A stretch of DNA of 64,000 nucleotides. Source: a virus (Duplodnaviria > Caudoviricetes). Positions 2,766-64,000 of the stretch are shown piece by piece; position 1 is the first letter of the stretch; the number at the start of each line of letters is the position of its first letter. Under the pieces are notes generated by a model that did not search any database, was not told the DNA's origin, and saw only the letters and a list, made by a program, of their open reading frames with translations. The stretch lies in the IMG/VR virus record IMGVR_UViG_3300025924_000001, positions 47,865 through 111,864 of that record; one strand, given 5' to 3'. The translations under genes were made by a program, and so were the position numbers.

Positions 2766-2805
2766 GGTGGTTCCCTTCCGGAAAGCAGCGGTTAGCGGTT
2801 GTGAT

Positions 2806-5706
2806 CTACTTGAAACCGGTCATCTTCTTCAGCTCCCGCCACGCAACTTCCCGCTGCATCGGGTCGGGGTCGTTCCGCCACTGGTGGTGCAGTGCCTGGA
2901 ACACGGACTCCTGAGCGCGCTCCGCGCGGCTCACGGACGGCAGCACCTCCGGTGCCACCGCCTTGTTGATCTGGTCGAACGCGACGCCGCGGTAGGGACC
3001 CACCGGGTCCGGCTGCTCGGCGAGCGCCTCCAGCTTCTTGCGGGTCTTCTTGAGGTCCTTCCGAAGGTCGGCGACCTCGGCGTCTCGGGCCGCGTTGACG
3101 TCGGCGACGGCCTTCGTGATCATCTCCTGGACGGTCACGAGGTCGAGGGTGACGGCCTTGGTGACCTCGGTCGTGACGGTCTTCTCGGCCTCAACGACCT
3201 CGGTCGCCGCGGCCTCGACCCTCACCTTCTTGGGCTTGGCGGCCTTGGCCGCACCGGCACCGTGCGGTGCTGGGCCGCCGACCCCCACCGGCACCGGACG
3301 AGAGCCCGGCAGCGAGCCGCCGTAGGGGCTGCCGCTGGGCGCGGTTGGGCAGAGGTCGGGGAAGGTCTGCGCGATGTGGTCGTGCATGGCCAGCATGGCC
3401 TGCCGCGCGTTGTCCTTCATCGCGTTGGTGTAGTAGGTGCGGGTGGGGACGCCGGTCACCGACGGTGGGCTCACCGGTCGCATCGGGTTGCTGCCGCTCG
3501 CGGGTGTCTCGGAGGCGCGACCCGCGGTGAGGTAGCCGTGGTTGAACTGCGCCGCGGAGATCGACCCGAACGGGTTGGGCGCGGTGTTGGGGCCGCCGTG
3601 GCCCGGCGACGCGGCCTCGTGACCGGCCGTGACGAGCGGACGGTTGTAGGAGCGGCCGTTCATCGAGCCCGGGGCGGGGAAGGTGCCGGGACCGGGGTTC
3701 GCGTCGCGGAACTCCTTGTACAGCTCCGACTTCGCCTCGAGCAGGTAGCGCGGGTCGGTTCCCTTGAGGGTGACCACGTGCTGCCACAGGTCGTTCGCCT
3801 TGCGGGCCTGGTCGAGCGGCGCGGACGCGGCCATCTCGAAGGCCTTGCGCTGCCAGTGGTTCGGGTCGAGGCTGGACAGGTCGTAGCTGGGGTAGCTCTT
3901 CGCGACGTCGTCTGGGTGGAAGCACGGGCAGGTCAGGTCGTGCAGCACGCCGTAGTCCGCGGGAACGTTGAGCATCTTCAGCCGCATCGACGCCGAGCCC
4001 TCGTGGTCGCCGGGGAAGATGAGGTCCGCGGTCTTCACGCTCGAGTCGGGAACGGTGGGCAGCTTCGCGTCGTGCTCGAGGGCCTCGATCGCGGGGCCGT
4101 CCGGCTCGCGGTGCGCCGGCACCGGGTCGGCGTCCTCGGTCTCCTCGACGCCGTCGGTGGGCGTCGCCTTCTTCTCGGCCTTCACCTTCTTGCCCTTGTG
4201 GCTCGCCCGGATCTTGCCGCCGGTGGCCTCGTCGTCATCCCCACCGTCGCCGTTCTCACCGCCGGCGGCCTTGACCTTGCTGTCCGCCTCCGGCAGGTAG
4301 CCGGGGTGGGCCTTGCCGCAGGACGGGCAGAACTTCTCGCCCTTGTCGAGCTGGTAGCCGCAGCCGAGGCACGTGAAGTCGTGGTTCTTCTTGACCGCGA
4401 GCGCGCCCTTGAGCTTGCCGCCGCACTCGGGGCAGAAGTTGTGCTCGGCGTGCAGGTTCGCCCCACAGCCGGGGCACATGACCTTGTCCTTCTTCTCGAC
4501 GGTGACGACCTTCTCGACGGTCGGCTCGACGGCCTTCTCGCCGTCGTCGCACTTCTCCGTCTCGTTCTCGTCCTCGTCGTCGGCCTTGGCGCTGCCGGCG
4601 CCGCCGGTCCCGGCACCGGCGGTGCCGCCGCCGGCCTCACCCGCGCCGGCGCTGCCGCCGCTCGTGCCGCTGCCGCCACCGGTGGAGCCGGCCTTCGCCT
4701 CGTCGGGCTCCTCGTCCTTCGTGGCGTCCGGCTCGTCCATGGTCTTCGCCTCGGTGACGTCGTCCTCGACGGTGTCGACGTCGATCACCTTCTCGCTGTC
4801 GCTCATGCCGAGCTCCTTCTTCCAGCTCTCGGGGAGCCGGGCCACGAAGGCGGCACCCTTGCGTCGGGCGATGCGAATGATGCTGCTCTTCAGGTCCTCG
4901 GGCGACTTGTTGTCGTCGCCGGCGCGGCCGATCGAGGTCGCGGCGTCGTGCACGTCCTGAGGGGTGACGATGGGGAAGGAGCGGTCGGTGCCCGCGAAGT
5001 CACCGGCGGGGATCGCGTCGCGATCGGTGCCGCCACCCACGTTGGGGTCCACGTCGCGCTTCACGACGCCCTCGTGACCGGTGAGTGCCTTAGCGACGTC
5101 GGCCGGGGTGACGCGCTCACCCTCGTACGTGACGCCGCGCTTCACGACGATCTCGGTGACGTCGCCCAGCATCTTGCCCACGAACTCGGGGTCACCGTCG
5201 GCGCCGGCGGCCTTCACGAGCTGGAACTTCGAGTTGAAGTTGCTGCCGCGGTCGACGAGGCTGATCTCACTGATCTTGGTGAGGCCGTCGCGGCGGCCGC
5301 GGATGATGCCGTTCATGGCCTTGCCGGTGGGGTCCGGCACGATGTCCGGGTGCGTGATGCCCACCGAGTAGCAGGTCAGGACGCCCTTGCGAACGAGCTC
5401 CTTGGCCACGGGCTCCACGACGAGGGACTTGACCCAGTGCCCGTCGGGGGTCGCCTCCACCTCGAGGCCCCTGCCGGCCGGGTCCCGGCGAGCCTGGTGC
5501 TGCACCCGCACGTTGCCGCCGGTCTCGAGCCACTCGTGGATCGCCTTCGCGGACCAGTCCTGGTCGACGATCTGCAGGTCGCTGTCGACGGTGCCGTCGG
5601 TGGCCTTGCCGTAGACGATGAGGTCGCCGTCGGCCGTCTCCTCGGTCTTCTCGATGGGGAACGAGAAGTAGGTCAGCTCGCCGTCGGGGGTGAGGGTTGC
5701 GGCCAC
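2806..5706 (-). CDS. Prohead maturation protease/scaffold fusion with double zinc ribbon
   Basis: N-terminal HK97-like protease motifs (YGKAT...DSDLQIVD, NVRVQH, YSVG, EISLVDR); CPGCG/CPECG/CLGCG/CPSCG ribbons; acidic linker; C-terminal coiled coil; lies between portal and capsid. Confidence 0.8.
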   Translation of the reverse strand: MAATLTPDGELTYFSFPIEKTEETADGDLIVYGKATDGTVDSDLQIVDQDWSAKAIHEWLETGGNVRVQHQARRDPAGRGLEVEATPDGHWVKSLVVEPVAKELVRKGVLTCYSVGITHPDIVPDPTGKAMNGIIRGRRDGLTKISEISLVDRGSNFNSKFQLVKAAGADGDPEFVGKMLGDVTEIVVKRGVTYEGERVTPADVAKALTGHEGVVKRDVDPNVGGGTDRDAIPAGDFAGTDRSFPIVTPQDVHDAATSIGRAGDDNKSPEDLKSSIIRIARRKGAAFVARLPESWKKELGMSDSEKVIDVDTVEDDVTEAKTMDEPDATKDEEPDEAKAGSTGGGSGTSGGSAGAGEAGGGTAGAGTGGAGSAKADDEDENETEKCDDGEKAVEPTVEKVVTVEKKDKVMCPGCGANLHAEHNFCPECGGKLKGALAVKKNHDFTCLGCGYQLDKGEKFCPSCGKAHPGYLPEADSKVKAAGGENGDGGDDDEATGGKIRASHKGKKVKAEKKATPTDGVEETEDADPVPAHREPDGPAIEALEHDAKLPTVPDSSVKTADLIFPGDHEGSASMRLKMLNVPADYGVLHDLTCPCFHPDDVAKSYPSYDLSSLDPNHWQRKAFEMAASAPLDQARKANDLWQHVVTLKGTDPRYLLEAKSELYKEFRDANPGPGTFPAPGSMNGRSYNRPLVTAGHEAASPGHGGPNTAPNPFGSISAAQFNHGYLTAGRASETPASGSNPMRPVSPPSVTGVPTRTYYTNAMKDNARQAMLAMHDHIAQTFPDLCPTAPSGSPYGGSLPGSRPVPVGVGGPAPHGAGAAKAAKPKKVRVEAAATEVVEAEKTVTTEVTKAVTLDLVTVQEMITKAVADVNAARDAEVADLRKDLKKTRKKLEALAEQPDPVGPYRGVAFDQINKAVAPEVLPSVSRAERAQESVFQALHHQWRNDPDPMQREVAWRELKKMTGFK

Positions 5707-20876: not shown

Positions 20877-21299
20877 GGCGTGGCGTCGCGATCCTGGACT
20901 GCGGCCGGAAGGCCGTGACGGTCACGTCGACCGGCGGCGTCTACGAGGGAACCTGGTCGGGGGCCTTCTCCCGAGACAAGGCGATCAACCTGATCGCGAG
21001 CGCCGGCTGGCGCGAGGCTCCCGGTGAGGACTGGACGGTGTCACCGGCGGACAACGGGTTCAGCCTCAACGTAATCCACGACCTGGTCTTGGTCGCGGTT
21101 CGGCGAGGTCGATGAGGAAGAGGGGAGGTTGGGGCGCGCGCCCTGACCTCCCCTCTCGCCGTCGAGAAGCAGAGCGATGATCATCGTCAGGAAGACGACC
21201 AGCATCGTCAGCACCCACTCAACCGCGCCCACCCGACACGTCCCCCGCTCGTTCCAGCTTCCTCAACCGTGATCAAGCTTAGCGGGTGGCTGGGCTCAA

Positions 21300-21941
21300 T
21301 CACCACCGGGGCTTGGACCGCACCCGGTTGACCTCCTGAAGGACGGCGAGCGGCTGGGTGAGGTCCCGACTGGTGTCGAAGAGGTCCTGCCAGCAGCCGG
21401 CGCCGAACCCCACCGCGACCGCGTTCAGCAGGCTGATCCGTCGCTCCTCGTCGAGGTGGACCCACTCGACGTGCGACTTGTCGGGGTCGTAGACGACGTT
21501 CACGGCTCCCGAGTCGCCGATGGAGATCTCGACGTCGTGCCGCTCATCGACGACCGTCTCGACGTGGTACTCCTGAAGGAGCTCGTGGTCGAGGAGACCG
21601 TCGCTTACGTGGGTGATCCGGTAGGGCAGCTGCTCGGGGTCGGTCGCGCTGGCGCAGACGATGAGGAACCCCACGTCGCGCTGGTCGCTCTCGACGTTGA
21701 CCGCGACCGCGAGGTGCGGCGCGCCCACGAGGTGGCTCACCTCGGTCGCGGGAACGGTCACGACCGCGGTGAGGTCACCCGCGTCGTCGAGGCTGAGGGC
21801 GGCCTCGCCCACGAGCTCGTCCCACAGGGTCTTGACGGGAACGGACGGCTGGGGGATCGCAACGCCGCCGGCGAGGTTGGCCGTGCGGTCGGCGTGCTCA
21901 CCCCGCAGGGCGACGCCGCGAAGGGTCAGGTAGTCGGTCAC
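21300..21941 (-). CDS. Hypothetical protein
   Basis: Coupled to the upstream ORF (GTGA), high GC3. Confidence 0.6.
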   Translation of the reverse strand: MTDYLTLRGVALRGEHADRTANLAGGVAIPQPSVPVKTLWDELVGEAALSLDDAGDLTAVVTVPATEVSHLVGAPHLAVAVNVESDQRDVGFLIVCASATDPEQLPYRITHVSDGLLDHELLQEYHVETVVDERHDVEISIGDSGAVNVVYDPDKSHVEWVHLDEERRISLLNAVAVGFGAGCWQDLFDTSRDLTQPLAVLQEVNRVRSKPRW

Positions 21942-22369
21942 GAGAGCCTCACGTGGATGTCGGTGTCGGGGTCGCAGTGGTAGGCGGCGCAGATGCGGTG
22001 GTAGCCCTCGACGATGGTCGGGGGTCGGCCGCGGAGGACGAGCACGGGGCTGAGCTTGACGCCGTTAGCGATCTGACTGAGCTCGCCGGTGACGTGGGGG
22101 TCCTCGCGCTTGAGGATCGGCAGGCTCGCGGCGCGCAGCAGGTCCACCGTTTTCCACGTGCGCGTGGCGCACGGCTCGAGAAGACCGCCGAGAACGAGCG
22201 CCGCCACGTCGTCATCCATCAGAAGCGCGAGGAACTTTCGCGCCGCGAGAACCGCGTCCTTGGTCGGTTCAGCTCGCCAGCGAGGGAGCCGGGAGGTGAG
22301 GGGGTCAGGGACCCGTCGCGCGGTCCGGCTCTCGCGCTTAACCACGGTTTCGTCGCTCGCCGAGCTCAA
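21938..22369 (-). CDS. ParB/Srx-like domain protein (start uncertain)
   Basis: LSPVLVLRG...IVEGYHRI motif. Confidence 0.55.
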   Translation of the reverse strand: MSSASDETVVKRESRTARRVPDPLTSRLPRWRAEPTKDAVLAARKFLALLMDDDVAALVLGGLLEPCATRTWKTVDLLRAASLPILKREDPHVTGELSQIANGVKLSPVLVLRGRPPTIVEGYHRICAAYHCDPDTDIHVRLS

Positions 22370-22515
22370 CGAGGTAGGTGATCGCCTGTCGCTCCGTCCA
22401 GCCGCCCTTCATCAGGGCCGTGAGGATCTCGTGCATCGCGATCGCGTCCGACACCAGCTTCGACACCTCACCAGTCTCGAAGCCACTGAGGTCGTCCGGG
22501 ATCTCATCGCGGTTC

Positions 22516-23178
22516 TCAGGCACCAGCCGCCTCCCTCGCGGGTCGCCGACGGCCCTTGCCGCGGTTGGGGTAGGCGGTGAGGACGTCCGCGTTGAAGAGG
22601 TCGCGGGGCTCGACGTTGAGGAGCGCGCAGGCGCGGGTCACGAGGGACTCTGCCGGCAGGCAGCCGCCGTAGGCCCACGCGATGTAGTTCCCCTGGTTGA
22701 AGCCGTCGACGGGCAGGTTGAGCGCGTTGGCTTCCTCCGTGAAGCGGCGCGCGGTGTAGCCGCGGTCGCGCACGAGCTCGCGGATCGGCTGCCAGCCCCA
22801 CTTCGTGCGGTTCGGGTTGGGCGCGCGGTGACCGGTGCGGTGCGGTGAGAGCTCGGTCTCCACCCACGCGACGAACCGGGAACGCTCGGGGTCACCGTTG
22901 AGGCTCGCGAGCTGGCGGACGCCATCGGTGGTCAGCAACACGGAGCGCTCGAGGTTGCCGCCGTCATAGATGGCGAGCTCGACCCGCTCCTCGGTGCTGA
23001 CGGTGTCGAGCTCCTCGGTGGTCGCGCCGATCGCGAGGCAGGCGTCGATCGCGTGAACGAGAACCCGTCCCGAGCTCTCGTTCGACGGGTCGACAGCGAC
23101 GTACCGCACGGACAGCAGGTTGAGGGGGTAGTTGGCGGTGAGGCTGGTGGGCGGTGGCTGAGACATCTCGTCATTCAT
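22516..23178 (-). CDS. Bro-N-like + HTH regulator/antirepressor
   Basis: LLTTDGVRQL...P....F..WV..E (Bro-N-like) followed by a Cro/C1-like HTH; divergent from the promoter at 23237. Confidence 0.55.
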   Translation of the reverse strand: MNDEMSQPPPTSLTANYPLNLLSVRYVAVDPSNESSGRVLVHAIDACLAIGATTEELDTVSTEERVELAIYDGGNLERSVLLTTDGVRQLASLNGDPERSRFVAWVETELSPHRTGHRAPNPNRTKWGWQPIRELVRDRGYTARRFTEEANALNLPVDGFNQGNYIAWAYGGCLPAESLVTRACALLNVEPRDLFNADVLTAYPNRGKGRRRPAREAAGA

Positions 23179-23302
23179 GGTGGTACCCTACCAGTGATGC
23201 GAGGTTGATGACAACGGTGTTCATCCAAGTTTGTTGTTTACATCTCACCCCACGGGTGGTACGGTACTTCCAGGAACGAGGAACCACGGAAGGGAGCCCC
23301 AG

Positions 23303-23668
23303 GTGAGCAACAGGGCAGAGCGCACCCGCCTCCGGAAGCTGCGACGGCTCCAGGAGCAGGCCAACCGCCGCGCGAACCGCACGCACCGGCTGACTCACAG
23401 CGGCCGCCCGCAGGCGGCGCGGATCTGGCTCGAGGAGGTCGGCGTCTCCAGCGAGACCGCGAAGCGGTTCGCGTCGGCGTTCTCGCTCGGCGTTCAGCCG
23501 ACCGAGATCGGCACGACCGAGATCAAGACGCACCCTCACTCCCGCTTCACCAAGACCGTGCCGGTGAAGAGGTACGATCGCACCACGTTTCTCGCGCGGC
23601 TGCGCCAGTACCGACCCAAGGACCCGACCGCGGCGAGCGAGTTCGACCGCGCCGCAGCTGCCTACTAG
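23303..23668 (+). CDS. Hypothetical basic protein
   Basis: Follows a TTTACA-17-TACGGT promoter (23237-23265) and GGAACGAGGAAC leader. Confidence 0.6.
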   Translation: MSNRAERTRLRKLRRLQEQANRRANRTHRLTHSGRPQAARIWLEEVGVSSETAKRFASAFSLGVQPTEIGTTEIKTHPHSRFTKTVPVKRYDRTTFLARLRQYRPKDPTAASEFDRAAAAY

Positions 23669-23684
23669 ATAAGGAGCGTCGACG

Positions 23685-23810
23685 ATGCCGACCGCGCTGA
23701 GCGCCAAGCTGAAGAAGCTGAAGACCGACGGGATGTCCCGGGTGGGACGCCGCCGGGGAACGAAGAGCGTGCGCCACGGGCGCACCAAGGTCAACGCGAA
23801 GAAGCGCTGA
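23685..23810 (+). CDS. 41-aa Lys/Arg-rich peptide (below the ORF-track cutoff)
   Basis: TAAGGAG SD, ATG; MPTALSAKLKKLKTDGMSRVGRRRGTKSVRHGRTKVNAKKR; fills the gap between flanking genes. Confidence 0.6.
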   Translation: MPTALSAKLKKLKTDGMSRVGRRRGTKSVRHGRTKVNAKKR

Positions 23811-23811
23811 C

Positions 23812-24288
23812 GTGAGCCAGAACGCGAGCGCCGACCTCGTGTTCGGGGTGCCGCTCGGCGGCAGCGACGAGGGCTGGCTGCTGACCGGGCCCAAGGACCG
23901 GTGGGGTGAGGTTCGGCTCGAGGCCGAGCACCTGCCGTGGCTCACCCCCGCCGAGGCTGAGGAGTTCGACAACCTCGGCTACGGCGAGATCCTCGAGCTC
24001 GGTCTCGCGCACCTCGCGACCCTGACGAGCCCCACCTCCGGGGACCCGCTGAGCCTGGGTCTCACGGTTCACTACCACGGCTACGAGCTCAACTCGTTCG
24101 CCCTCGTGCTCCGGGAACCGCAGTACAACGTGTCGTGGGGCGGCACGACCCACGTCGACTACCAGCTGCTTCGGGACACGAGGCACCTCGGCGCCCACCA
24201 CCTGCTGTTCGCGGAGGCCTTCGCGGCCCTCAACCTCCAGCCCGAGGACCCCGAGCCGCGGTGGTTCATGACCTGCGAGTACTGCTAG
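23812..24288 (+). CDS. Hypothetical protein
   Basis: High GC3, operon position. Confidence 0.6.
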   Translation: MSQNASADLVFGVPLGGSDEGWLLTGPKDRWGEVRLEAEHLPWLTPAEAEEFDNLGYGEILELGLAHLATLTSPTSGDPLSLGLTVHYHGYELNSFALVLREPQYNVSWGGTTHVDYQLLRDTRHLGAHHLLFAEAFAALNLQPEDPEPRWFMTCEYC

Positions 24289-24562
24289 GAGGCAGCGTGC
24301 CCCGACCCCGCCACCACGCCGTTCGCCACACCGAGCTTCCCGCCTGGTGGCGAAAGGCGAGCCGGGTGAAGACCGACTACGAGGTTCAGGTGGAGCCGCC
24401 CGACGGCCCCTGGCGCCCGGTCAAGCGCAAGCAGCACGACCGGGATCACGGGATCGTGCTGTTCACGTTCGAGGACGACACGCAGCTGCGCGTCGCCAGC
24501 GAGGACAAGATCATGGCTCGGCGCATCGCGCCCGAGACCGCACCCGAGGAAGGACCCGAGGA

Positions 24563-25165
24563 ATGAAGCTGACCCGCCGCCAGCGCACGCTGGCGATCCT
24601 GACCGCGGTGGGCGTCCTGCCCATCGCCCTGATGGCCGATTCGTGCGGCTCGAGCACCGCGCAGAACAAGTCGCAGGCCGTCATCGACCAGGCGTCCCAG
24701 GCCGCGCAGGACGCGGTGCCGTACCCGCTGGACGCGATGAAGCGCAGCGGTTGGACCGAGCGCAAGCTGCTCACCGAGAACTTGCTGCGCGAGACCGACC
24801 CGAACGCCATCCACTACGTCTACTGGTTGACCATGGACGGCCGGTTGATCGCTCAGTACACGATCAAGGGCAAGGTCTTCGACCCGAACTCGCAGCTGAC
24901 CAACACGCAGTCGATCACCTACGCGACGACCAGCTCCACGCCCGAGGTTGTGGACGCCCCCGGCGACAACGGCACGTGGGGTCCCGAGCCGTTCTGCTAC
25001 GGCTTCTTCCTGACCTCCGGCGCGGAGAAGAAGCTGCCGTGCCAGGGGCTCGTCGAGGACTCGGACACGCCGGAGACCTTCAGCACCCCGCCGATCCTGA
25101 CCTACGACGTCAACCAGAAGTCGCCGATCGACAAGGGCAACCTGGCTGGAATGGGTGGTCACTGA
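24563..25165 (+). CDS. Putative lipoprotein
   Basis: Basic N-terminus, hydrophobic stretch, lipobox-like ADSC. Confidence 0.65.
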   Translation: MKLTRRQRTLAILTAVGVLPIALMADSCGSSTAQNKSQAVIDQASQAAQDAVPYPLDAMKRSGWTERKLLTENLLRETDPNAIHYVYWLTMDGRLIAQYTIKGKVFDPNSQLTNTQSITYATTSSTPEVVDAPGDNGTWGPEPFCYGFFLTSGAEKKLPCQGLVEDSDTPETFSTPPILTYDVNQKSPIDKGNLAGMGGH

Positions 25166-41100: not shown

Positions 41101-41934
41101 CTGTTCGACATCGCCCGGGACGGCTGCTTCGTGCGGAAGGTCACGCGGTGAGCAAGTTCAAGGTGGAGCGGTACTGCCTATGCGGTGCCGAGATGATCAT
41201 CGAGAGCGACGGCCTCAGCGTCATCCGGGACACCGACGTCGAGTTCACGCGACGGCACACCGGCGTCGGTCACGTGCCGTGCACCAAGCGGCAGGCCGCG
41301 AGGGCTCGCCGGCGGCAGCTGATCCGGGACGCGGAGGAGCTGGGACGCGATGAGTGACGACGCGAACGATTGGACCACGGCTCGGCACGACTTCTGGGGC
41401 CTGCCGAACGGTGATGTGCTGCAGAGCCACGACGTGACCGCGTGCGACGGCTTTCCGTGCCCCCTGCACGACCCGTCGGACCACCCGCTTCGGTACGCGC
41501 CGCTGAACTGGCGATCGGACCGCTACCTCATGGAGCGAATCTGCCCGTGTGGGGTCGGCCACCCCGACCCGGACCACCTGATCCACGTGAGCCGGCTCTA
41601 CAGCGAGGGCGTCGCGTGGGGTCAGAGCACCCACGGCTGCTGCCCGCGAGGGTGCTGCCGTGCCTGACGCCGACCACGAGGAGTTCGCGGCGGAGGCGAG
41701 TCGACCCGCAGGCTACACCGACCTCGGGCTGTCGGACAAGGTGGGCTGGGACGTTCACGGTCACGTCTACGTCAACGACGAGCGGTGCTGCTGCCGCTGG
41801 TGGTTGACGCGATACCTGAACCGAGCGGTGGGGTGCCACCTGTGAACCCGAGCTAACCCTGGCCAAAAGTGTTTACAACTGGTACGATTGCAGTAGTTGA
41901 TCGGAACCAGGAACCGAACGAAAGGAGCACGAGA

Positions 41935-42195
41935 ATGGCGAGCGTGGAGCAGGTACAGGGCCAGATCGGCCTGGCCAAGGAGCAGGCCGACCGCGGCCTG
42001 ACGGCGCTGCAGGAGGCTGAGACCCAGATCACCCAGGCCCAGCAGTCCTTCCAGGAGGCCGCGCAGGGCAGCAACCAGTCCGAGGCCAGCGACGTGAACA
42101 ACGCATTCACGCACGCCCTGCAGAAGATCAGCGAGGCGCGGGACACGACCATGGCCGCGGTCAGCAACGCCGAGTCCTACGCGGGTCGGCTGTGA
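41935..42195 (+). CDS. WXG100-like helical hairpin protein
   Basis: 86 aa, Ala/Gln-rich helix-turn(AQGS)-helix, C-terminal ESYAGRL; own promoter and AAAGGAG SD. Confidence 0.5.
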   Translation: MASVEQVQGQIGLAKEQADRGLTALQEAETQITQAQQSFQEAAQGSNQSEASDVNNAFTHALQKISEARDTTMAAVSNAESYAGRL

Positions 42196-50034: not shown

Positions 50035-50547
50035 GTGACCTTCGTCGACGCGACGCCGTCGCGCCGCCTCGCCCTGGCCGCCGCGGTGGATCTGCTGAGC
50101 CCGCTGGGCGAGGCGGACGCCGCGCGCGTGACCGCCACGGCTCAGGCCCTGTTCGCGTGGCTCGTGGGCCCCGCGTTCCTGGTCGTGACGCCGGGGACGG
50201 TCGTGAGCCAGGCGACCGGTCAGCCAACCGGAACGCCCACCCCCACCGGAGGAACGATGCAGCTGCACGACAACGAGCAGGTCACCCTCACCGTCGCGGA
50301 GGCGGACGCCAAGGGCGTCGCGCTCCAGGACACCCTGACGTGGACCGTCGACCAGGCGACGGTGGCGACGCTCCAGGTGAGCGCGGACACGCAGTCGGCG
50401 CTCCTGGTGGCCGGCCTGCCGGGCTCCGCGGTCGTCACCGTCACCGATGGCGCGCTGAGCGCCACCCTGGCGGTGGACGTGGTGCCGGGCGGCGTGGCCA
50501 CGATCACGGTCACGCCGGGCACGCCGGAGCCGCAGCCGACCGCCTGA
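50035..50547 (+). CDS. Ig-like domain protein with in-frame internal start at 50257
   Basis: Ig-fold pattern (LTWT..D..VATL...A...G...VTVT); GGAGG SD before ATG 50257. Confidence 0.55.
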   Translation: MTFVDATPSRRLALAAAVDLLSPLGEADAARVTATAQALFAWLVGPAFLVVTPGTVVSQATGQPTGTPTPTGGTMQLHDNEQVTLTVAEADAKGVALQDTLTWTVDQATVATLQVSADTQSALLVAGLPGSAVVTVTDGALSATLAVDVVPGGVATITVTPGTPEPQPTA

Positions 50548-50560
50548 GGCGCGACGCGGG

Positions 50561-50596
50561 AGCGCCCCACCCCGGCTCGGGGTGGGGCGCTTCTTT
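50561..50596 (+). terminator. Intrinsic terminator ending the plus-strand block
   Basis: 13-bp stem agcgccccacccc/ggggtggggcgct followed by TCTTT. Confidence 0.8.
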
Positions 50597-50760
50597 AATT
50601 GATGAGAATTTTCAAGGGGTGGTCTTCGCTCGCGGATGTGAGGGGGTAGTGTGCGCGAGCGCGCGGCCCTATATAGTTGAGTCACACCCGCCATCGTTAG
50701 CGAGCGTGGCTCTCAAGCTGAGGCAGCGGGGCGCCCCTGGTGGGCGCCCCGCTTCTCACG

Positions 50761-53700
50761 TCACGCTCGCTTCACGCTCACACGCGCGCCCTCGATGTCA
50801 CGCACGTAGCTCTGAGTGAGGCGGAGCATGGACGGGTACCCCTCCAGGTGAGCGACGTACTCATCCCCCTCCTGGGTGAGCGAGCGGACGGCGTGGCACG
50901 TCCTCGCCAGGCGAATGGCGACGAACACCAGGGACTGCACGTCTCCCTCGATGGTGATCCTCGCCGTGCCTCGGCCCTGCTCCAGGGAGGCGACCACGAC
51001 GTCCAGGTCCTCGACCAGCTCGGCCACCCGGTCGGTCAGGGCCTCGCCCCGCTCGGCGAGCTGTGCGATGATCTTCATCTGAGACTCCGTTCCTCGTTCC
51101 TTGATGATACTACCTTACCACGCAGCGCTGCTCTTGTAAACCCCTGGCCCCAGAATCCTGGCCCAGTTCCTGGGCCTGGCTGAGCGCGGGGCCCAGCCAG
51201 TTCCGCGCCCTAGAGCCCCAGGATCCGCGTGCCCCGCGGGTCGAGGCCCAGCGCCTCGATCACGTGCTGCACGCTGCGGCACGCGACGGGGTGGCTCTCA
51301 CCCGCGACGAGCAGCGAGAACGAGGTGCGCCCGGTGCGGCGCAGGGTGCCCTCGAAGCGGTCCCCCAGCCACAGCTCGTGGCCCTGGCCAACGGCGCGCG
51401 TGGTCACGTCCAGCGCGTCGTAGGCGCGCTCGAAGCTGGCCGCGCTGACGTGGCTGCGACGGCCGGCCACGTCCCTGAGCTCGACCCGGTCGCCCTCCAC
51501 GCCCTCGAGGAAGAACAGCTCGCCGGTGTAGTGGTCGGCGTAGCGGGGGTGCTGGCTGGCGTCCATCGTGGCCTCCTGCGGTTCCTGGTTCCTGCTGATG
51601 GGTTAATCATACACCAGCGGTGGGGGTTTGTAAACCCCCACCGCCAAGATCTTTAGCGCGTCCCGTCCAGCCACGCCTGGCCGGCCTGGCGCGCCCAGGC
51701 CACGAAGTCGTCGCCGTCCATCCTGGAGCCCGTCACGAGCTCCGCGAGCGCGTCCATCTCGTTGGCGCCCCAGCGGCGCTCACCCTCCGCGTTGAGGGCC
51801 GTCGACCACGCCTCCGCGTCGGACGCCGGCGCGTCCTCGCCGAGCTCCGCGTTGACCTCGGCGATCGCGATCAGCAGCTGGTGGTCGGTGAGGTTCTTGA
51901 CGTTCATCTCGAGCTCCGTTCCTGGTTCCGTCTGGTAGGACCAGCTTACCACGAGCTGGGAGCGTTGTAAACCCCCAGCTCGTGGGCCGCTCAGCTGGCG
52001 AGCCGCGCGATGGCCTCACGGGCGCTCAGCAGCTCCGCCACGGCACGCTTGCGGGTCTCCCACGTGATGCGGGGGCTGGCGATCCGGCGGGCGCGCTGGC
52101 GCAGCTCCACGGTGCCCAGGGCGGCCTGATCGGTCGTGCTCAGCTTGAGCTCGCAGCGCCAGCCGTGGCGCTTGGTGACGCGCACCAGGACGTTGTTCAC
52201 GCTGTGGTTCACGTTCTCGGTGTAGCGGACCACCTCACCCACCAGCACGCCGTCCACGACCACGTCGTAGCGCGGCTGACCGTCGTACGTGTCCTTGGCG
52301 TTGCGGTTGAGCTCGACCGTCTCGCTCATGACGTCCTCCATCGTTCCGGGGTTCCTGGCTTGCTAGGTCCTACCTTACCAGAGCGAGGGGGCTTTGTAAA
52401 CCCCCTCGCTCGAGTTCCCTCAGCTGGCGTCGACGAACGGGCCCACCGCGCCGGCCCACTCGAAGCCGACGTTGTGGCCGTCCGTGCCGACCACCACGCC
52501 GCTGTTGAGGGCCCCGTTGCCCACGCCGTAGACGTGGACCAGGCCGGTGGCCAGCCCCACGGTGAGCGCGGCGCAGAGGACGATGACGGCGACGCTGACG
52601 GTGGCGATGGCCTGGGCGGCGAGCTTCATGACGGTCTCCTCGGGTTCCGGGTTCCTGGCTTGCTGGTACCTATCGTACCACGTCGGTGCGAGGATGTAAA
52701 CAGCCTCGCACCAACGCGGTGCGCCGGGCTCAGCGCTTGTCGGCGTCCGGGCGGACGTGCAGCAGGTGCCGCCCGTGGATCTCCCAGTCGTGATCGGCCT
52801 GCGTCAGGTTCATGCGGGCGGGGTTGGAGGCCAGCACGACCTCGTCGCGGCGCTCCAGGTCCGCCAGCACCGTAGCCAGCGTGGCCTTGCTCACGCCCGG
52901 CAGCTCCGCGGCGATCAGCCGCAGCGCCACCCAGTCGGTGCCCGGCTTGGCCCACTTGGCGTACGCCTCGCGGATCGCCCGGTCGAACCTGGCCATGACC
53001 CTCGCGTCCATCGGTTCCTCCTCGTTCGTTCCTGGCCTGCTGGAACCATCGTACCACGGCTCGGCGAGGTTGTAAACCCCTGGGCTCGCAACCTCGCCCG
53101 CCGCGACGTCACTCGCCGTGCCGGTGCAGCGAGAACCGCAGCCCGTCGCGCTCGAGGGCCACCCAGCGGCCCTCGTTCAGGTCGAGCACGGTCAGCTGGC
53201 TCGCGGCCTGCGCGAGGTGGGCGAGCCGCACCACGGTCTCGTCCGAGAGCGCGAGCCGGCTCTCGACCCACTCCCGCAGCTCGCCGAGGATGAAGTCGAC
53301 GAGGGCGCGGCGCGCGTCCTCGAGGCTACCCTGCGCGAGGGCGGTGCGGCTCGCCATCGCGGCGTCCTCCTCGGTGCGGGCGTTGGCGGCGGTGCGGCGG
53401 AGCGTCCAGGTGGTCATGCTTCCTCGTTTCCTAGTTCCCGTCTGGCTGGTAGAACCATCCTACACCAGGTGAGGGGGTTTGTAAACCCCCTCACCCAGGA
53501 TCCTCTCAGGCGACGTGCGACGGCACCGCACCGAGCCGGGTGCGCGGCCCGTCCACGATCCCGCAGGCCTCCTCGAACGTGTCGAGGTCGCTCGTGTGCC
53601 GGCGGGCCTCGCCGAGGGCCAGCAGCAGCCGCAGGCTGTCCTCGTCGCCCGTGAACTCGTAGCGGTTCTCGTCACTCAGGCTCATCGTGAGCTCGGGGCG

Positions 53701-55960
53701 GCTCGGCAGCAGCCGCATCGTGGCGCACACGAGGGCGTAGGCGCGGTTCTCGGCCTCCTCGGCGTCGCGGCCGATGATCTCGATGACCATGGTGAGCGCG
53801 TTCACGGGGTTCCTCCTGCGGTTCCTGGTTCCTGACTGGCTGATAGACCTATCCTACACCGAGCGAGGGGGTTTGTAAACCCCCTCGCTCAAGATCTTCT
53901 ACCGCACGTACGCCCAGAGGAGGCCGGCCTCACCGCTCGCGTCGCGCCAGCGGGTCACGCGCTCGAAGGCGACGGCCCAGATCAGGTCGTCGGCCACGTA
54001 CAGGTCCGACGCGTGTCCCAGCTCAACCCTCGCGGGCGGCTCGACCAGCGAGGTGGTGCGGTCGACGATGCTGACCCGACCGGTCAGGTCGTCGAACCAG
54101 GCGATCTGGTGGTCGCTCACGGTGTCCTCCGGTTCCTCGTTCCTGCGTTCTGGTACCAGTCTACACCGTGAGCGCGACTTTGTAAACCCCTCTACGCGAC
54201 CCGCTCGAACATGATCTTGGCGACGTCCGCGTCCCGGTACGCGACGGGCGGCGCGGTGTGCGTCAACAGCAGCCACGCCGCGCGCAGCCGCAGCAGGGTG
54301 GCGTTGGCCGTGAACGCCACGCACGTCGCGTCGCGCCACCGCTCCGGGTCGTCGAGCCAGCGGACGACGAACCGGCTCCCGTTCACCTGGCGTACCTCGC
54401 ACGGCCGCACGCACAGCCAGGTGAAGCCCTCGCTCACAGGTTGACCTCGTGGCCGTCGCGGAGCACGCGCACGTCGCTGACGAGGTTGAGGTACGATCCC
54501 GAGTCGACCGAGCGCGCCGTCTTCCGCGCGTTCGTCTCCACGGTGGTCTGGTGAACGGTCAGCCAGCCGGCGTACGCGTTCATCGACGTCACCTTGATCT
54601 TGATCTGAACCTCGTACATCATCCGCTCCGTTTCCTGGTTCCTGCTTGACTGAGTCCAGTCTACCACGTCCGAGGACGTTTGTAAACCCCTACTCGGCGA
54701 CGAGCCCGACGGGCCGCCCCACCGCCTGCGCGAGCGCGGCGCTCAGCTTGCCGCGACGGTTGACGACGGGCCCGCCCGTCCACGTCGCGCCCGCGTACAC
54801 CAGCCACGCCCCGCCCAGCTTCACGAACGACCACTCCCGTCCCGTCGCCTCGCTCAGCTGCCGCGCGATCGCGTCGTGCACCCGCGACGGCGGGTTCTCG
54901 CTGAAGTCCCGACCCCTGAGGGTGATCGGCTCGCTCATCGTCCGCTCCGTTCCGTTCCGTCTTCCTGGCCTGCGACCAGCCTACCACGAACGGCGTGAGA
55001 TGTAAACCCCTGGCTCACGCCGAACGCGGTGAGCCCTCGTCAGCGCCCCGTCGCCGCGCGCAGGTACAGCTCCTGCGTCCCGTCCGGTCGCACCACGCGC
55101 ACCGCCCGCCGGCGACGCGCGGCGCGGTACACCGCGTTGGCCTCACCCAGCGCGACCGCCAGGCTCGCCGCCTCCCCCACCGCGCGCCACGTCCCGCCCC
55201 GTCGAACCTGCAGCTTCAGCATGACCGCCTCCTATTATCTCTTCCGGTTCCGCGTTCCTGGTCCTACCTTACCACGCCGTGGCGTGGATGTAAACACCTT
55301 CAGCGAAGCAGCTCCCGCGCCACGTGCAGCAGCGCGTGCGCGAGCGCCCCGACCGCGCCGTGGCGGTGGTGCCGTCGGTGGCGCGAGCGCCGCGCTCGCG
55401 GCGCGGGCCGAGCCACCGGCGCGCTCACGAACGGCACCCACACCCAGCCGAGCTGGGGGTGCCACGCCCAGCCGGCGGGTGGCACCTGGCGTGGCACCCG
55501 TGACACCTGACGTGGCACCCGTGGCACCGCGGGCCTCACGCCCGCGTCCAGACGGTGATCCCGATGGTCGAGAGCTCGCGCCAGCCGGCCTCGGTCTGGA
55601 GGCGCAGCACGCGCGTGCCCCACGCCAGCAGGTGGCCCGCGGCCACGGGCGCGTCGTCGCGGTCGGCCACGACGACCGCCTGGCCGAGGTACGCGGTGCG
55701 ACGGGTGAGGCGCTTGACGGGGGTGGTGGGCTCGCTCACGGCTTCCTCGTTTCCTGGTTCCTGCGTTCTGTACCTATCCTACCACGCGCGAGGGGGTTTG
55801 TAAACCCCCTCACCCGCGCCGATCAGCGCGCGAGCCAGTCGCGCTCGTCCTGGCTCAGGTCCGAGAGCCGCACGGCCCAGCCCCAGCGCCACTCGAAGGC
55901 CACGGCGTCGATCCCCAGCTCGTCGACCTCGTCCTGCGTGAGCTCACGGTCCGCGTCCAT
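50761..55960 (-). other. Array of 16 small ORFs (45-118 aa), most with their own promoter
   Basis: 50761-51078, 51210-51566, 51653-51907, 51991-52329, 52420-52629, 52730-53011, 53109-53417, 53506-53805, 53899-54120, 54192-54437, 54434-54622, 54690-54938, 55040-55222, 55300-55539, 55536-55739, 55823-55960. Confidence 0.8.
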
Positions 55961-56031
55961 CCCGTCCTCCGGTTCCTCGTTCCTGCCTGACTGAGACCAG
56001 CCTACCCCACGAGCGGCCGAATGTAAACCCC
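51079..56031 (-). promoter_or_regulatory. 14 copies of a promoter/leader element: TTTACA-N17-TAnnnT, then GGAAC-repeat leader and SD
   Basis: -35 (tgtaaa on plus) at 51135, 51629, 51966, 52395, 52695, 53071, 53480, 53874, 54181, 54681, 55001, 55289, 55799, 56022; every spacer is 17 bp. Confidence 0.9.
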
Positions 56032-56251: not shown

Positions 56252-57055
56252 TCACGCCTCGAGGCTCCCCCTCAGCGCGTCCGCCAGCGCCTCCAGGTCC
56301 AGGGCCGTCGCCTCACCGGCCCCGACCACCTCAGCCACGGCACCCGCCACGGACGACCGCGTCACCGGCACCCGGCGCTCCGCGACGGCCAGCAGCTCCC
56401 GCGGGTCCGCCCCAACGCTCAGCAGCCACCGGACCGCCGCCAGCTCCCGCCGCCGGACCCGTCGCCGGTCACCCTCGCACCCCTTGCAGGTCCCGCGCCG
56501 GCCGTCCGCCTTGTTCCCGTCCCGGTAGAACTCGGCCAGCGGGCGCCGCTCCCCGCACCGCCCGCAGGCCTTCACCGGGACCGCCTCGACCCCCGTCGAG
56601 GGGTCGGTGGACACGGGCGCTCGCGCGATCTGACAGCTAACCCCCTCCGTGTCAGAAAGCCTCCCGGAACCGGTTCCAGGACCCGTCCCGGGCCCGCTCC
56701 CAGCCTGCTTCCCAGCCAGTTCCGCAGCCGGTTCCGGCCCAGGTTCCAGCTCGGTTCCACCCCTCGCGGATCCGCCCGGCCGAGGTTCCGCCTCAACCCG
56801 TGCTCCCACCACCCAGCTCAGCCGCTCGCCGCCTCTCGCCCCGTTCCCGGCCTGGCCCAGCCGAGCCCCCAGCTCAACCGCCTCGCGCCGCGTCGCGGCC
56901 ACGAGTCCCGCCACGAGCGCCAGCACCTCGTCCACGCCCGCCGCGTCCAGGCCCCGCCGCCAGAGCGTCGCCTCCACCTCGTCCAGGCCCAGCGCGCCGT
57001 CGCGCTCCCGAGCCTCCCGAACCTCCCGCTCCCTCGTCGCCACCCCTCGCCTCAT
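56252..57055 (-). CDS. Zinc-finger protein
   Basis: KACGRCGERRPLAEFY...DG....CKGC treble-clef motif. Confidence 0.55.
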   Translation of the reverse strand: MRRGVATREREVREARERDGALGLDEVEATLWRRGLDAAGVDEVLALVAGLVAATRREAVELGARLGQAGNGARGGERLSWVVGARVEAEPRPGGSARGGTELEPGPEPAAELAGKQAGSGPGTGPGTGSGRLSDTEGVSCQIARAPVSTDPSTGVEAVPVKACGRCGERRPLAEFYRDGNKADGRRGTCKGCEGDRRRVRRRELAAVRWLLSVGADPRELLAVAERRVPVTRSSVAGAVAEVVGAGEATALDLEALADALRGSLEA

Positions 57056-57824: not shown

Positions 57825-60257
57825 TCAGTGACCACCGCTCGCCGCGGCCCACGACGGCAGGGGGTGCGTCAACGCGATGCCCTCGTAGTAGTACGAGCGG
57901 TGCCCACCCACCATCCGCTGCCGCTTCTTGACCTCGTCCGCCGCGCCCTTCAGCAGCCGACCGAACCGCATCTTCTGCGCCGCCTCATCCTTGAACCCGC
58001 CGTGCCGCGTCGCCCACGCCTGGAACAGGTCATCCACCGGCACCGTCTCGTCCGGGCCGAGCCGGCACTCCTCGCGGAGGAACGGCAGGATCGGGTTCGC
58101 GAGATCCCCGAGCTCCTCCACCGCCTCCGCGGCCGCGCCCGGCACGGTCCAGCCCCGCTCGTTGAGCCGGTCCAGCCCCTCGAGCGCCCAGCTCAGGATC
58201 CCGGGCAGCTCCGGCTCGAACCGCCGCCACAGGTCCGGCTCCTCCTTGTTCACGTAGCTGCGAGTGTACTGCGCCACGAGCGTGCGGTACGGCAGCGCGC
58301 CCGCGGCGTCCGGCAGCTGGGGCACCTCGTTCGCCATCAGCATCAGCCGCGTCGACAGCCGGCCGGTCCACGGCGCGCGGTTCTTCCGGTCCACGTCCAG
58401 CGTCCCCTCGCCCACGATCGACAGCAGGCGTTCCACCGCGACCTCGAGGTCCACGCGCCGCGGGTCCGGCACGCGCACGTCGTCGAACACCGCCAGGGAC
58501 CGGTTGATGAACGACGCCATGCCGAACTGCGTCGTGAACCCGTTCAGGGTCGGTCCAACCACGTTCTCCTCGCCCAGCAGCCGCGTCAGCACCCACGCGA
58601 ACGTGCCCTTGCCGGACCGCTTCGGGCCGACGAGGAACAGCATCTTCTGCCGGTCCGTCCGACCCGACACGCAGTACCCGGCCCACTCCTGCAGCAGCGC
58701 GGGCGTGTCGGGGTCCCCGTCGAACACCTCGGCGAGGTACGCCTCCCACGCGGGGCAGCGCGCCGTCGGGTCGTGCTCGAACGGCAGCGCCGACAGGTTG
58801 AAGAGCCGCGGCGTCGGCGGCCGCAGCTCGCGCGTCGCCACGTCCAGCAGGCCGTTCGCAACCGCCACGAGCCGCCCCGGTCCCGCCTCCGCCGCACCGG
58901 CGTCCCCGAGCCAGTCCCCGGCCGCGACCGTCTCCGGCAGGTACGTCACCGCCTCCAGCGCGTCCACCACGTTCGCGATGCGGTGCCGGTTCGGCGACCA
59001 CTCCGTCGCCACCAGGGTCTGGTTCTCGCCACGGCCCACCGCCCGGAGGTAGGTCGCCTCCCCGAACCGGGCGTAGAGGGCGCTCTTCAGCCGCGCCGGG
59101 GTCACCTCGCCCCAGTGGGTGCCGGTCCAGGCCCGCCACTCCCCGCGCCACCAGTGCAGGCCCCGCGCCCCGTTACCGGCCACCCGCCACTCCCGGTCCA
59201 GCGTCTCCGCGGCGCGCAGGAAGTCGTTCTCGCCACCGTAGTGATCGGGCGCGGTCCCGTCCGGCGGCGGGCCGCTCAGCGCCCGCGGCTCAACGGCGAC
59301 GGCGCTGGGCTCACCCGCCGCAGCCGGCTCCGTGACCTCGACCTCGACCGACGGCGCGGTCGTCAGCACCGCGAACCCCGAGGGCGCGGCCGACGAGCTC
59401 GCGGTGGGCAGCGTCACCTCGAACGGGGCGTGGTTCACCTCGTGCTGCTTGACGCAGTACTCCCAGTGGTGCTCGAACCGGTCCCGGTTCGCCTCGGTCC
59501 ACGGCCACGAGGGGTCCGAGAGCGGCAGCGTCTGCGCGTACGCCAGCCACCTCACCCACGCGCGCTCCTTGTCCGTCTCCCCCGCCGCGACCAGCGCGCC
59601 GGTGAAGCTGAACAGGTCCGCGTCGTTGCCGTTCCCCGCGCCGCTTCCACCGCCACTCGGCAGCCCCACCCGGGCCTCGGCGTGGTCCGCCAGCAGCGCC
59701 TGGTGCAGGTCGTCGCCGGGCCACAGCTCGATCAGGGTCAGCTCGCCGCGCGCCCCCAGCACCGGCTCGTACAGGTCACCGCTGGGGTGCACCGACTCGG
59801 GAACCGGCACGAAGCCGTTCGCCTTGATGTCCCAGCCCCCGAGGTTGACCTGCCGGGGCCACTGGTCCCGCGGCACCCGCCGCGCGTCCACCCAGTAGTG
59901 GCGGTTCCCCGCCGTGCCCCGCCGCGTGAACGGGCGGTGGCCGTGGCTCTCGAGGACGTCGGCGGTGTTCGAGGTGCGGAACCGCTCCTCGTCGTCGACG
60001 TCGATCACGAGCAGGCCGGCCTCGGGGGAGCAGACCTGGCCCACCTGGTGGTCGGGGCTCTCGCAGTACGTGGTCGTGCCGTACAGGTACGACTCAACCG
60101 GCCGCGACAGCGCGAAGATCTTCTCCCAGCGCACCACCGCGTCGTGGACGCCGTCGCCGTCGACCGCGGTTCCACGCCGCCGCGGAACCGCGCGCCACGG
60201 GATGAGGGTGAACCTGAACGGCTCCGCGACCTCGACCCACTCCAGCACGTCCGGCAT
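57825..60257 (-). CDS. Primase-polymerase / D5-like SF3 helicase
   Basis: Prim-Pol motifs LLVIDVD, H.YW, DIKANGFV..PES.H; D5_N (VANGLLD); Walker A GPKRSGKGT; LAVFDD; LMANE. Confidence 0.88.
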   Translation of the reverse strand: MPDVLEWVEVAEPFRFTLIPWRAVPRRRGTAVDGDGVHDAVVRWEKIFALSRPVESYLYGTTTYCESPDHQVGQVCSPEAGLLVIDVDDEERFRTSNTADVLESHGHRPFTRRGTAGNRHYWVDARRVPRDQWPRQVNLGGWDIKANGFVPVPESVHPSGDLYEPVLGARGELTLIELWPGDDLHQALLADHAEARVGLPSGGGSGAGNGNDADLFSFTGALVAAGETDKERAWVRWLAYAQTLPLSDPSWPWTEANRDRFEHHWEYCVKQHEVNHAPFEVTLPTASSSAAPSGFAVLTTAPSVEVEVTEPAAAGEPSAVAVEPRALSGPPPDGTAPDHYGGENDFLRAAETLDREWRVAGNGARGLHWWRGEWRAWTGTHWGEVTPARLKSALYARFGEATYLRAVGRGENQTLVATEWSPNRHRIANVVDALEAVTYLPETVAAGDWLGDAGAAEAGPGRLVAVANGLLDVATRELRPPTPRLFNLSALPFEHDPTARCPAWEAYLAEVFDGDPDTPALLQEWAGYCVSGRTDRQKMLFLVGPKRSGKGTFAWVLTRLLGEENVVGPTLNGFTTQFGMASFINRSLAVFDDVRVPDPRRVDLEVAVERLLSIVGEGTLDVDRKNRAPWTGRLSTRLMLMANEVPQLPDAAGALPYRTLVAQYTRSYVNKEEPDLWRRFEPELPGILSWALEGLDRLNERGWTVPGAAAEAVEELGDLANPILPFLREECRLGPDETVPVDDLFQAWATRHGGFKDEAAQKMRFGRLLKGAADEVKKRQRMVGGHRSYYYEGIALTHPLPSWAAASGGH

Positions 60258-63500: not shown

Positions 63501-63864
63501 GTGCAGGTTCCGTTGCGTCGACGGATGCCGTCGACCCGCAGGCCCGGCTTGACGTCGTTCAGGTTCACGGTTCCTCCTCGTTCCTCGTTCCTGGTCTGAG
63601 GCTCAGCCTACCAGCTGCGACCCCAAATGTAAACCCTTATTCGTCGTCCGACGGCTTCGTGACGACGGTGCTCAGGCAGACCAGGCAGGTCACCGACGCG
63701 ACGTTGTCGGTGAGGCGGGTGCCCCGCTTCACGCCCTGACCTCGGGCCCTCACCCGAAGGTCCTGACCGCAGGCTGGTCCCGGGAACGCCGTGGTCGCGC
63801 CGACCCGGAGGTGAACCGCGTCACCCGCGGTCCGTCGCCGCCGTCGATCGGTCGCCACGGTCAC
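60518..63864 (-). other. Block of small coupled hypothetical ORFs upstream of the primase
   Basis: GTGA overlaps, G-rich coding strand; another promoter-element copy at 63569-63636. Confidence 0.65.
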
Positions 63865-64000
63865 CGTCCCTCTCGCTCGAGCCGCCAGTCAACCGCGTCC
63901 AGGGCGACGTCCGCCGCGGCCACCGTCCGGCCAGCCTCGGTCTCCACGTCGCTCCTCGACCCCAGCAACCGCGCGGCGGCGAGCTGCACCTCCAGGGCCA

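Follow-up and report, generated by a model that had tools for sequence, protein, structure and literature searches.

Promoter-early stem-loop (PeSL) cassettes are known from the T4-type phages RB49/phi1, T4/PST, and KVP40/nt-1 (Arbiol et al. 2010, PMC2839356; Comeau et al. 2014, PMC4122927), in which a stem-loop, a sigma-70-type promoter, a Shine-Dalgarno (SD) site, and a start codon stand between the small orphan genes of a hyperplastic region. Analysis of a 64,000-nucleotide stretch of phage DNA (the window; the right 64 kb of the 111,864-bp IMG/VR virus record IMGVR_UViG_3300025924_000001, ~69% GC) revealed an array of like design at positions 50761-56031, in which 14 promoter-leader elements are each followed by one or two small open reading frames (ORFs). 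We consider it probable that this is a hyperplastic, PeSL-like array of 14 autonomous cassettes carrying early genes of a lytic-type phage of high-GC actinomycetes. PeSLs are the closest known system; the kind of locus is already known, and it is found here in a new host group. We use the term for an architectural class, not for a homology family.

The likeness to PeSLs includes stems made of G-runs and C-runs, as well as relatives in which single ORFs have been inserted, deleted, or replaced, the crossovers falling between the -10 and the start codon. The PeSLs of T4/PST use the same -35, TTTACW with N17, while that of the RB49/phi1 PeSL promoters is TTGACA (PMC4122927), and the junctions of PeSL mini-circles map to the -10/leader zone (PMC2839356), as do the exchanges of one cassette described below (family S). 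The PeSL analogy drawn in an earlier note on this DNA fits, with composite units, a variable region of orphan genes, and indels and replacements in or beside units. There are also differences: the hairpin here overlaps the promoter, enclosing the -35 (in a loop of UACA or larger) and using the spacer as its 3' arm, whereas the PeSL stem-loop lies upstream of the promoter; the array lacks an AT-rich upstream region and has an added, conserved GGAAC-repeat leader; and its carriers are an actinomycete phage lineage with 65-72% GC that is unrelated to T4.

The SPO1 host-takeover module (1998; summarized in PMC6873191), which the same note had named as an analogue, resembles the array in general design only, its small genes, too, being clustered and provided with promoters and ribosome sites of the type seen in highly expressed early genes. 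Homology to SPO1 gp37-60 was not found, no array ORF having a PHROG or Pfam match. The SPO1 genes are grouped in operons, whereas here nearly every gene has its own promoter, and the SPO1 module lies in a terminal redundancy, whereas the ends of the present record (window 63874-64000 and record positions 1-127) share an exact overlap of 127 bp. Such an overlap is typical of circular assembly and most likely reflects it rather than true terminal repeats, and the label "direct terminal repeat" for the record ends was therefore rejected. Promoter activity, terminator activity, and mini-circles have been demonstrated for PeSLs, and host shut-off for SPO1, whereas the present array is known from sequence alone. 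Among actinophages, the start-associated sequences (SAS) and extended start-associated sequences (ESAS) of Cluster K (Pope et al. 2011, PMC3203893) are likewise repeats that overlap the ribosome site of nonstructural genes, all in a single orientation, with none in virion genes and no function assigned to them. The SAS is a 13-bp GGGATAGGAGCCC box without a promoter, whereas a full promoter is present here, and the arms of ESAS are conserved in sequence, with variation that does not support base-pairing, whereas the arms here co-vary. No match to the SAS box within two mismatches was found in the array (five occur elsewhere in the window, versus 1.6 expected), and identity with the Cluster K repeats was rejected.

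All 14 elements described in the earlier note were recovered by a scan of the window, including the invariant TTTACA, the 17-bp spacer, the TAnnnT, and the GGAAC leader. The pattern TTTACA-N16-18-TAnnnT has 21 matches in the window versus 0.01 expected; 14 of these are consecutive elements on the minus strand (51112-56027), with a spacer of 17 bp in 14/14 and TG mostly before the -10. Aligned on the -35, the elements consist of a G-run (the four bases preceding TTTACA are G in 74-100% of elements), TTTACA, a 17-bp spacer whose last bases are mostly TGG or GTG, TAnnnT, a conserved C-A-G ~6-8 nt further on, at least two GGAAC/GGAAA repeats, and GGAG(G), with the start codon 5-9 nt later. An SD site and a start codon are located 24-47 nt downstream of every element, and the predicted promoter architecture (sigma-70-like, N17, SD site, and start codon) is complete in 14/14. 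An independent scan with a promoter consensus recovered 8 of the 14 elements, versus 0.1 expected, and GGAACNNGGAAC occurs 13 times, versus 0.13 expected, with 9 of the 13 occurrences inside the array. Upstream stop codons abut the next element, as had been remarked: 3-33 nt lie between a stop codon and the TTTACA that follows it, apart from one gap of 69 nt. With their spacing, TG extension, and TAnnnT hexamer, these predicted promoters match the textbook picture of a target for a primary sigma factor.

A strong hairpin with the -35 in its loop is predicted in 9 of the 14 elements (-25.6 to -34.7 kcal/mol; z -3.9 to -5.7 versus shuffles), with its 5' arm following the upstream stop codon and typically with an 11-15-bp stem closing on the loop UACA. 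The outer stem sequences vary between elements while complementarity is kept: for 61 elements from seven arrays, the longest helix between an element's own 5' arm and spacer had a mean of 9.8 bp, versus 6.7 bp for mismatched partners, and 0/10,000 permutations reached the observed mean. Since it is structure and not sequence that is conserved, a folded single strand is favored over a protein-binding duplex. Rfam gave no credible match in the region.

The leader is similarly regular. Two to four GGAA motifs are present in 58 of 59 leaders, spaced by 7 nt (49 times) or 8 nt (17 times), and the last repeat usually adjoins the SD site, giving GGA every 7 nt and ending in GGAGG. Leaders contain 33% A, 34% G, 26% C, and 7% T (67% purine) in a genome of 69% GC, and their predicted folding is -0.12 kcal/mol per nt, versus -0.28 for operon-internal starts and -0.31 for random genome windows. 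We read this as a leader of the standard kind that would keep ribosome entry open. A CsrA homologue was not found in the phage.

Relatives for comparison came only from a scan for the DNA pattern of promoter plus leader and from look-ups of exact proteins, the latter adding L130-L140. The pattern scan yielded G001, a 111,341-bp IMG/VR genome with 12 elements at the same position, as well as the metagenome fragments L083 and L069, the distant contig L078, and further short contigs of the same design. The cassettes of the window are as follows, with letters for protein families and z values relative to shuffles.

Cassette 1, 55823-56031, minus strand: -35 at 56022-56027, -10 at 55999-56004, GGAACgaGGAAC leader, ORF 55823-55960 (45 aa); no enclosing hairpin
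Cassette 2, 55300-55804, minus strand: element 55776-55804, hairpin of -30.7 kcal/mol (z -3.9); ORFs 55536-55739 (67 aa) and 55300-55527 (75 aa), both with homologues in G001
Cassette 3, 55040-55294, minus strand: element 55266-55294, small hairpin inside the spacer only; ORF 55040-55222 (60 aa, family L), found in L135 and L069 and absent from G001
Cassette 4, 54690-55006, minus strand: element 54978-55006, hairpin of -25.6 kcal/mol (z -4.1); ORF 54690-54938 (82 aa, family M), absent from G001 and L135
Cassette 5, 54192-54686, minus strand: element 54658-54686; ORF 54434-54622 (62 aa, family H), overlapping by GTGA with ORF 54192-54437 (81 aa, family I); the pair is kept in G001, L138, and L139
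Cassette 6, 53899-54186, minus strand: element 54158-54186; ORF 53899-54120 (73 aa), with only two clusters among 5.8 billion proteins searched; slot occupied in G001 by the unrelated cassette R
Cassette 7, 53506-53879, minus strand: element 53851-53879, 15-bp hairpin of -27.9 kcal/mol (z -5.2); ORF 53506-53805 (99 aa, family G)
Cassette 8, 53109-53485, minus strand: element 53457-53485 with hairpin; ORF 53109-53417 (102 aa, family B, found also in the distant array of L078)
Cassette 9, 52730-53076, minus strand: element 53048-53076, hairpin of -34.7 kcal/mol; ORF 52730-53011 (93 aa, family N), absent from G001
Cassette 10, 52420-52700, minus strand: element 52672-52700, hairpin of -32.6 kcal/mol; ORF 52420-52629 (69 aa, family O, with a hydrophobic N-terminal segment), absent from G001
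Cassette 11, 51991-52400, minus strand: element 52372-52400, hairpin of -30.4 kcal/mol; ORF 51991-52341 (116 aa, or 112 aa from the ATG at 52329; family E)
Cassette 12, 51653-51971, minus strand: element 51943-51971, hairpin of -33.3 kcal/mol; ORF 51653-51907 (84 aa, family C)
Cassette 13, 51210-51634, minus strand: element 51606-51634 with hairpin; ORF 51210-51566 (118 aa, family F)
Cassette 14, 50761-51140, minus strand: element 51112-51140; ORF 50761-51078 (105 aa, family D), the last gene of the leftward block; family D is found in every fetched array that includes this end (L130/L131/L133/L134, L135, L136, L137, and L083)

The 16 ORFs (45-118 aa; one per element, two in cassettes 2 and 5) have GC contents at third codon positions (GC3) of 0.86-1.0, which in this genome is strong evidence that they are coding. 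They are unrelated to each other, as had been noted, with no pair in the window at E<0.01, and none matches a family in any of the four libraries searched (Pfam, PHROGs, NCBIfam, and PADLOC). For family F, the 5.8 billion proteins contain only four clusters at 90% identity; the AlphaFold2 model of this family (pLDDT 85) predicts an SH3/Tudor-like barrel and a beta domain, the barrel being generic (best Z 5.8). The AlphaFold2 model of family B (pLDDT 87) has no solved-structure match above Z 4.7, and searches of the two models with Foldseek and VIA-align gave no convincing solved relative, none exceeding Z 5.8. Family N may be a helix-turn-helix protein, which we offer as a lead only, from ESM Atlas neighbors of that name (score 0.92); the same resource returned nothing usable for family D. 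In the second ORF of cassette 2, tandem GTGCCACG-like DNA repeats (55440-55530, minus strand) encode VPR/QV peptide repeats, and the motif WAWHPQLGW downstream of them is conserved in G001. The cassette proteins, which have no assignable function, are probably accessory factors for interaction with the host; "anti-host" or "anti-defense" roles are a reasonable guess by analogy.

Turnover of cassettes was followed in the window, G001 and its strain variants, L135, L136, L137, L083, and L069, with families obtained by clustering of the cassette proteins. In the following maps, a slash marks an element.

Window: /A45/A67+u75/L/M/H+I/u73/G/B/N/O/E/C/F/D
G001 (L130): /A93(+84-aa ORF)/Q/H+I/R/G/J/A68/B/E/C/F/D
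L131: same as L130 minus R
L135: /A/L/H/G/B/E/C/S/F/D
L136: /B/S/C/F/D
L083: G/B/N/O/E/C/D

Single cassettes have been inserted, lost, or replaced at the joints, and all replacements respect cassette boundaries; gene content is not fixed, and the gain and loss that the earlier note proposed to look for in relatives are both seen, along with replacement. L130 and L131 are 99.4% identical and differ by one cassette (R). At the junction in L131, one promoter core supplies the upstream half and the next core the downstream half, and this hybrid promoter places the crossover within the shared core of ~40 bp. Cassette S occupies the slot between C and F in L135 and that between B and C in L136, with homology that spans the GGAAC leader, the ORF, and the downstream hairpin and that excludes, on either side, the -10 and the segments proximal to the start site. 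From this extent, the moving unit consists of leader, ORF, and hairpin, with the exchanges in the zone from the -10 to the leader. L083 lacks the F cassette, the missing segment running from one stop codon to another. In the first cassette protein of G001 (93 aa; L130 3010-3288), residues 3-58 align with the window's cassette 2 (55539-55739), and the C-terminal part (residues 62-90) aligns with the cassette 1 protein (55826-55960), which points to fusion, splitting, or a changed order between the two lineages. Paralogy of cassettes 1 and 2 was rejected, since each matches a different half of one G001 protein.

The distant contig L078 (65% GC) has, at 1155-5591, 10 plus-strand and 4 minus-strand units of the same design, and its cassettes have families B and E in common with those of the window. 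Neighboring units on this contig share identical stretches of 58-66 nt, far better substrates for recombination than those of the window.

The earlier note had presented the element as a feature of the array. This is true of 14 copies, which lie on the minus strand, but 14 more are found elsewhere in the genome, so that the promoter-plus-leader unit is present in 28 copies in 111,864 bp, half of them packed into 5.3 kb. It precedes 28 genes or operons, and ~23 of the 28 copies have the double-GGAAC leader. Genome-wide and on both strands, 28 of 31 TTTACA hexamers are in promoter configuration; the 19 other -35-like hexamers tested gave a single promoter-configured site, TTTACT, and there are no TTGACA, TTGACG, or TTGACC sites with TAnnnT at 16-18 nt in the whole genome. 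Outside the array, the window contains the following sites.

20057, 23237, 32258, 33082, 35240, 38115, and 63633: TTTACA promoter sites
63567-63633, minus strand: example of a copy with promoter plus GGAAC leader

The unit is absent from the ~43-kb block of virion genes, and no sigma-70 region 2 or region 4_2 domain was detected in the phage genome. Together with the genome-wide spread, this fits a class of promoters for host polymerase that serves nonstructural and, we infer, probably early genes. A second mini-array of units lies on the plus strand and contains three units in the present record (21524-24300 of the full record) versus five in G001 (21162-24801), so this locus also varies in its number of cassettes. 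At window 41872-41935 (plus strand), the unit is present in degenerate form, with TTTACA, a GGAACCAGGAAC leader, and a start codon but no correctly spaced TAnnnT.

According to a crude GC3-based gene call and PHROG scans, a ~43-kb minus-strand block with portal, large terminase, and tail-fiber genes is flanked by blocks in which most genes are small. The array forms the far end of a leftward-transcribed block that converges on a rightward block ending at 50547. Its surroundings are as follows.

50549-50760: convergence zone of the plus-strand block and the array, with GC hairpins for both directions and plus-strand terminator-like sites at 50570-50593
56252-57055, minus strand: gene directly upstream of, and outside, the array (267 aa), with an HNH/endonuclease VII-like motif (PHROG endonuclease VII/HNH, E 2.5e-9), kept in G001
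57825-60257, same leftward block as the array: D5-type primase-helicase gene

Close relatives were not found by megablast of the array against 50,697 phage records or by a primase-based scan of IMG/VR; the best identities of the D5-type primase (33-37%) are to Streptomyces phages. Base composition and the small DUF397 genes in the neighboring block of relatives point to an actinomycete host, as we infer. Between the present genome and G001, the primases have 45% amino acid identity and are as diverged as the array, so that greater divergence or mosaicism seems to extend over the whole right arm. At codon positions 1/2/3, the differences are 0.39/0.35/0.39 for array proteins and ~0.07-0.21/0.06-0.16/0.22-0.27 for left-arm core genes; as a test of selection this comparison is uninformative, third positions being nearly all G or C and the right arm highly diverged.

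In the reading we favor, each cassette would consist of a sigma-70 family promoter (GGGG-TTTACA, 17 bp, and the extended -10 TGnTAnnnT), the leader, and one or two orphan genes, followed in most cassettes by a GC-rich hairpin that reaches into the next promoter. All units would be fired by host RNA polymerase at an early stage of infection; the hairpin, transcribed as the 3' end of the preceding message, would end or stabilize that message and insulate neighbors from each other; and the leader would give every gene the same open and efficient ribosome entry site. As the units share identical stretches of 20-30 nt, recombination between these would delete, insert, or replace whole cassettes.

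Several observations weigh against this reading. Promoter activity, timing, and start sites are predictions, and an absolutely invariant TTTACA is unusual for housekeeping-sigma promoters and could mean a more specific factor. The enclosing hairpin is missing in 5 of the 14 elements (1, 3, 5, 6, and 14); in elements 3 (measured from the second ORF of cassette 2), 5, and 6, just 3-5 nt separate the upstream stop codon from TTTACA, too few for a 5' arm that does not enter the coding sequence. The hairpins are not followed by a U-tract and no canonical intrinsic terminators were found on the array strand, so termination by them may be weak or absent. The distance from the first GGAA to the -10 is slightly more regular (standard deviation, 3.3 nt) than that from the last GGAA to the start codon (5.3 nt), so that the leader may have a role at the DNA level, at the RNA 5' end, or as the target of a regulator. 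Exact repeats between window elements are short (median 11 nt, maximum 26 nt); homologues of RecT, ERF, and RecA were not detected in the phage, where such a function may still exist, and no tyrosine or serine recombinase (Phage_integrase or Resolvase domain) was detected in the genome. Recombination is therefore probably rare and host-dependent or carried out by an unrecognized function. Finally, the order of shared cassettes is nearly always the same from relative to relative, and close strains show that of the window. The earlier idea of a shufflable array accordingly survives as to turnover and the two slots of cassette S, with turnover in fixed slots rather than free shuffling, and recombination at the repeats is supported by the L130/L131 crossover inside an element but not by the F-cassette indel, which ends at stop codons.

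The invariance of TTTACA, with 28 sites versus the single TTTACT, and the conserved G-run upstream of it could also be explained by middle-class or factor-dependent promoters, in which a phage factor or an alternative host sigma factor reads GGGG-TTTACA and possibly the GGAAC repeats. We regard this as unlikely, though worth keeping in view: spacing, TG extension, and TAnnnT are typical of primary sigma factors, the phage has no sigma domain that we could find, and the early promoters of T4/PST, which are read by host sigma-70, share the TTTACW -35 (PMC4122927). Rather less probable, in our estimate, is that a phage regulator shuts the class off together by way of the GGAAC repeats, the inverted repeats, or both, which as DNA operators would resemble the stoperators of Cluster A mycobacteriophages or the ESAS of Cluster K. 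The position of the GGAAC repeats shortly after the predicted start site, with rather little variation in their distance to the -10, would suit operators, as would their conservation in divergent phages and the possible helix-turn-helix protein of family N; but with a period of 7-8 bp, neighboring repeats face different sides of the helix, the leader, which continues into the SD site, is selectively kept free of structure, and hairpin arms conserved only in complementarity point to a folded single strand.

That hairpins of variable sequence and conserved structure stand between cassettes, and that whole cassettes are gained and lost, might suggest an integron-like system, with the hairpins as sites at which a site-specific recombinase excises and inserts cassettes. 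Integron cassettes are mostly promoterless, end in attC, and come with a tyrosine-recombinase integrase, whereas here every cassette has its own promoter, five elements have no hairpin, and no tyrosine or serine recombinase is detectable in the genome. An integron array was rejected on the absence of an integrase from the genome and the promoter on every cassette; the mapped crossover, moreover, lies in a stretch common to both elements, as in homologous exchange, and we hold the integron-like explanation to be very improbable. The locus might instead be an ordinary multi-promoter region in which the repeats are irrelevant and cassettes change by the illegitimate recombination usual in actinophage mosaicism. 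Conserved cassette order, an F-cassette indel that ends at stop codons and not in the promoter core, short exact repeats, and high divergence of the whole right arm, primase included, would all agree with this. We nevertheless find it doubtful, given that the L130/L131 deletion left a hybrid promoter at its junction, that S homology ends in the -10-to-leader zone on both sides, and that all replacements respect cassette boundaries.

Two further ideas go beyond the PeSL-like reading, and taken jointly we think them improbable, if worth stating. The TTTACA loop and the GGAAC leader might be handles for a phage control system that switches the 28 units together, which could involve a RegA/RegB-like RNA-binding or RNA-cleaving factor or a factor that directs polymerase. 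Separately, TTTACA in place of TTGACA might allow host sigma factor to read hydroxymethylcytosine-type DNA, independently in T4 and in the actinophage lineage. T4 has glucosylated hydroxymethylcytosine in its DNA, and the DNA of RB49 is unmodified. With T in place of G, the -35 has one cytosine fewer on the template strand, and TTTACA might in that way be an adaptation to modified DNA.

If the array is what we propose, the PeSL principle would extend from AT-rich T4-type phages of Gram-negative bacteria to unrelated, uncultured soil actinophages with 65-72% GC, which suggests that the cassette design evolved convergently. The strain-level deletion of cassette R provides a natural case of cassette loss with a mapped crossover. 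The compact and apparently strong promoter, together with its 5' leader, is a candidate expression part for Streptomyces-type hosts, and screens for host takeover and anti-defense activity could draw on ~30 families of small orphan proteins, including two with confident predicted folds but no clear structural relative. For the phages themselves, the principle would be that an accessory gene with its own promoter and insulator can be added or removed while its neighbors are left undisturbed.

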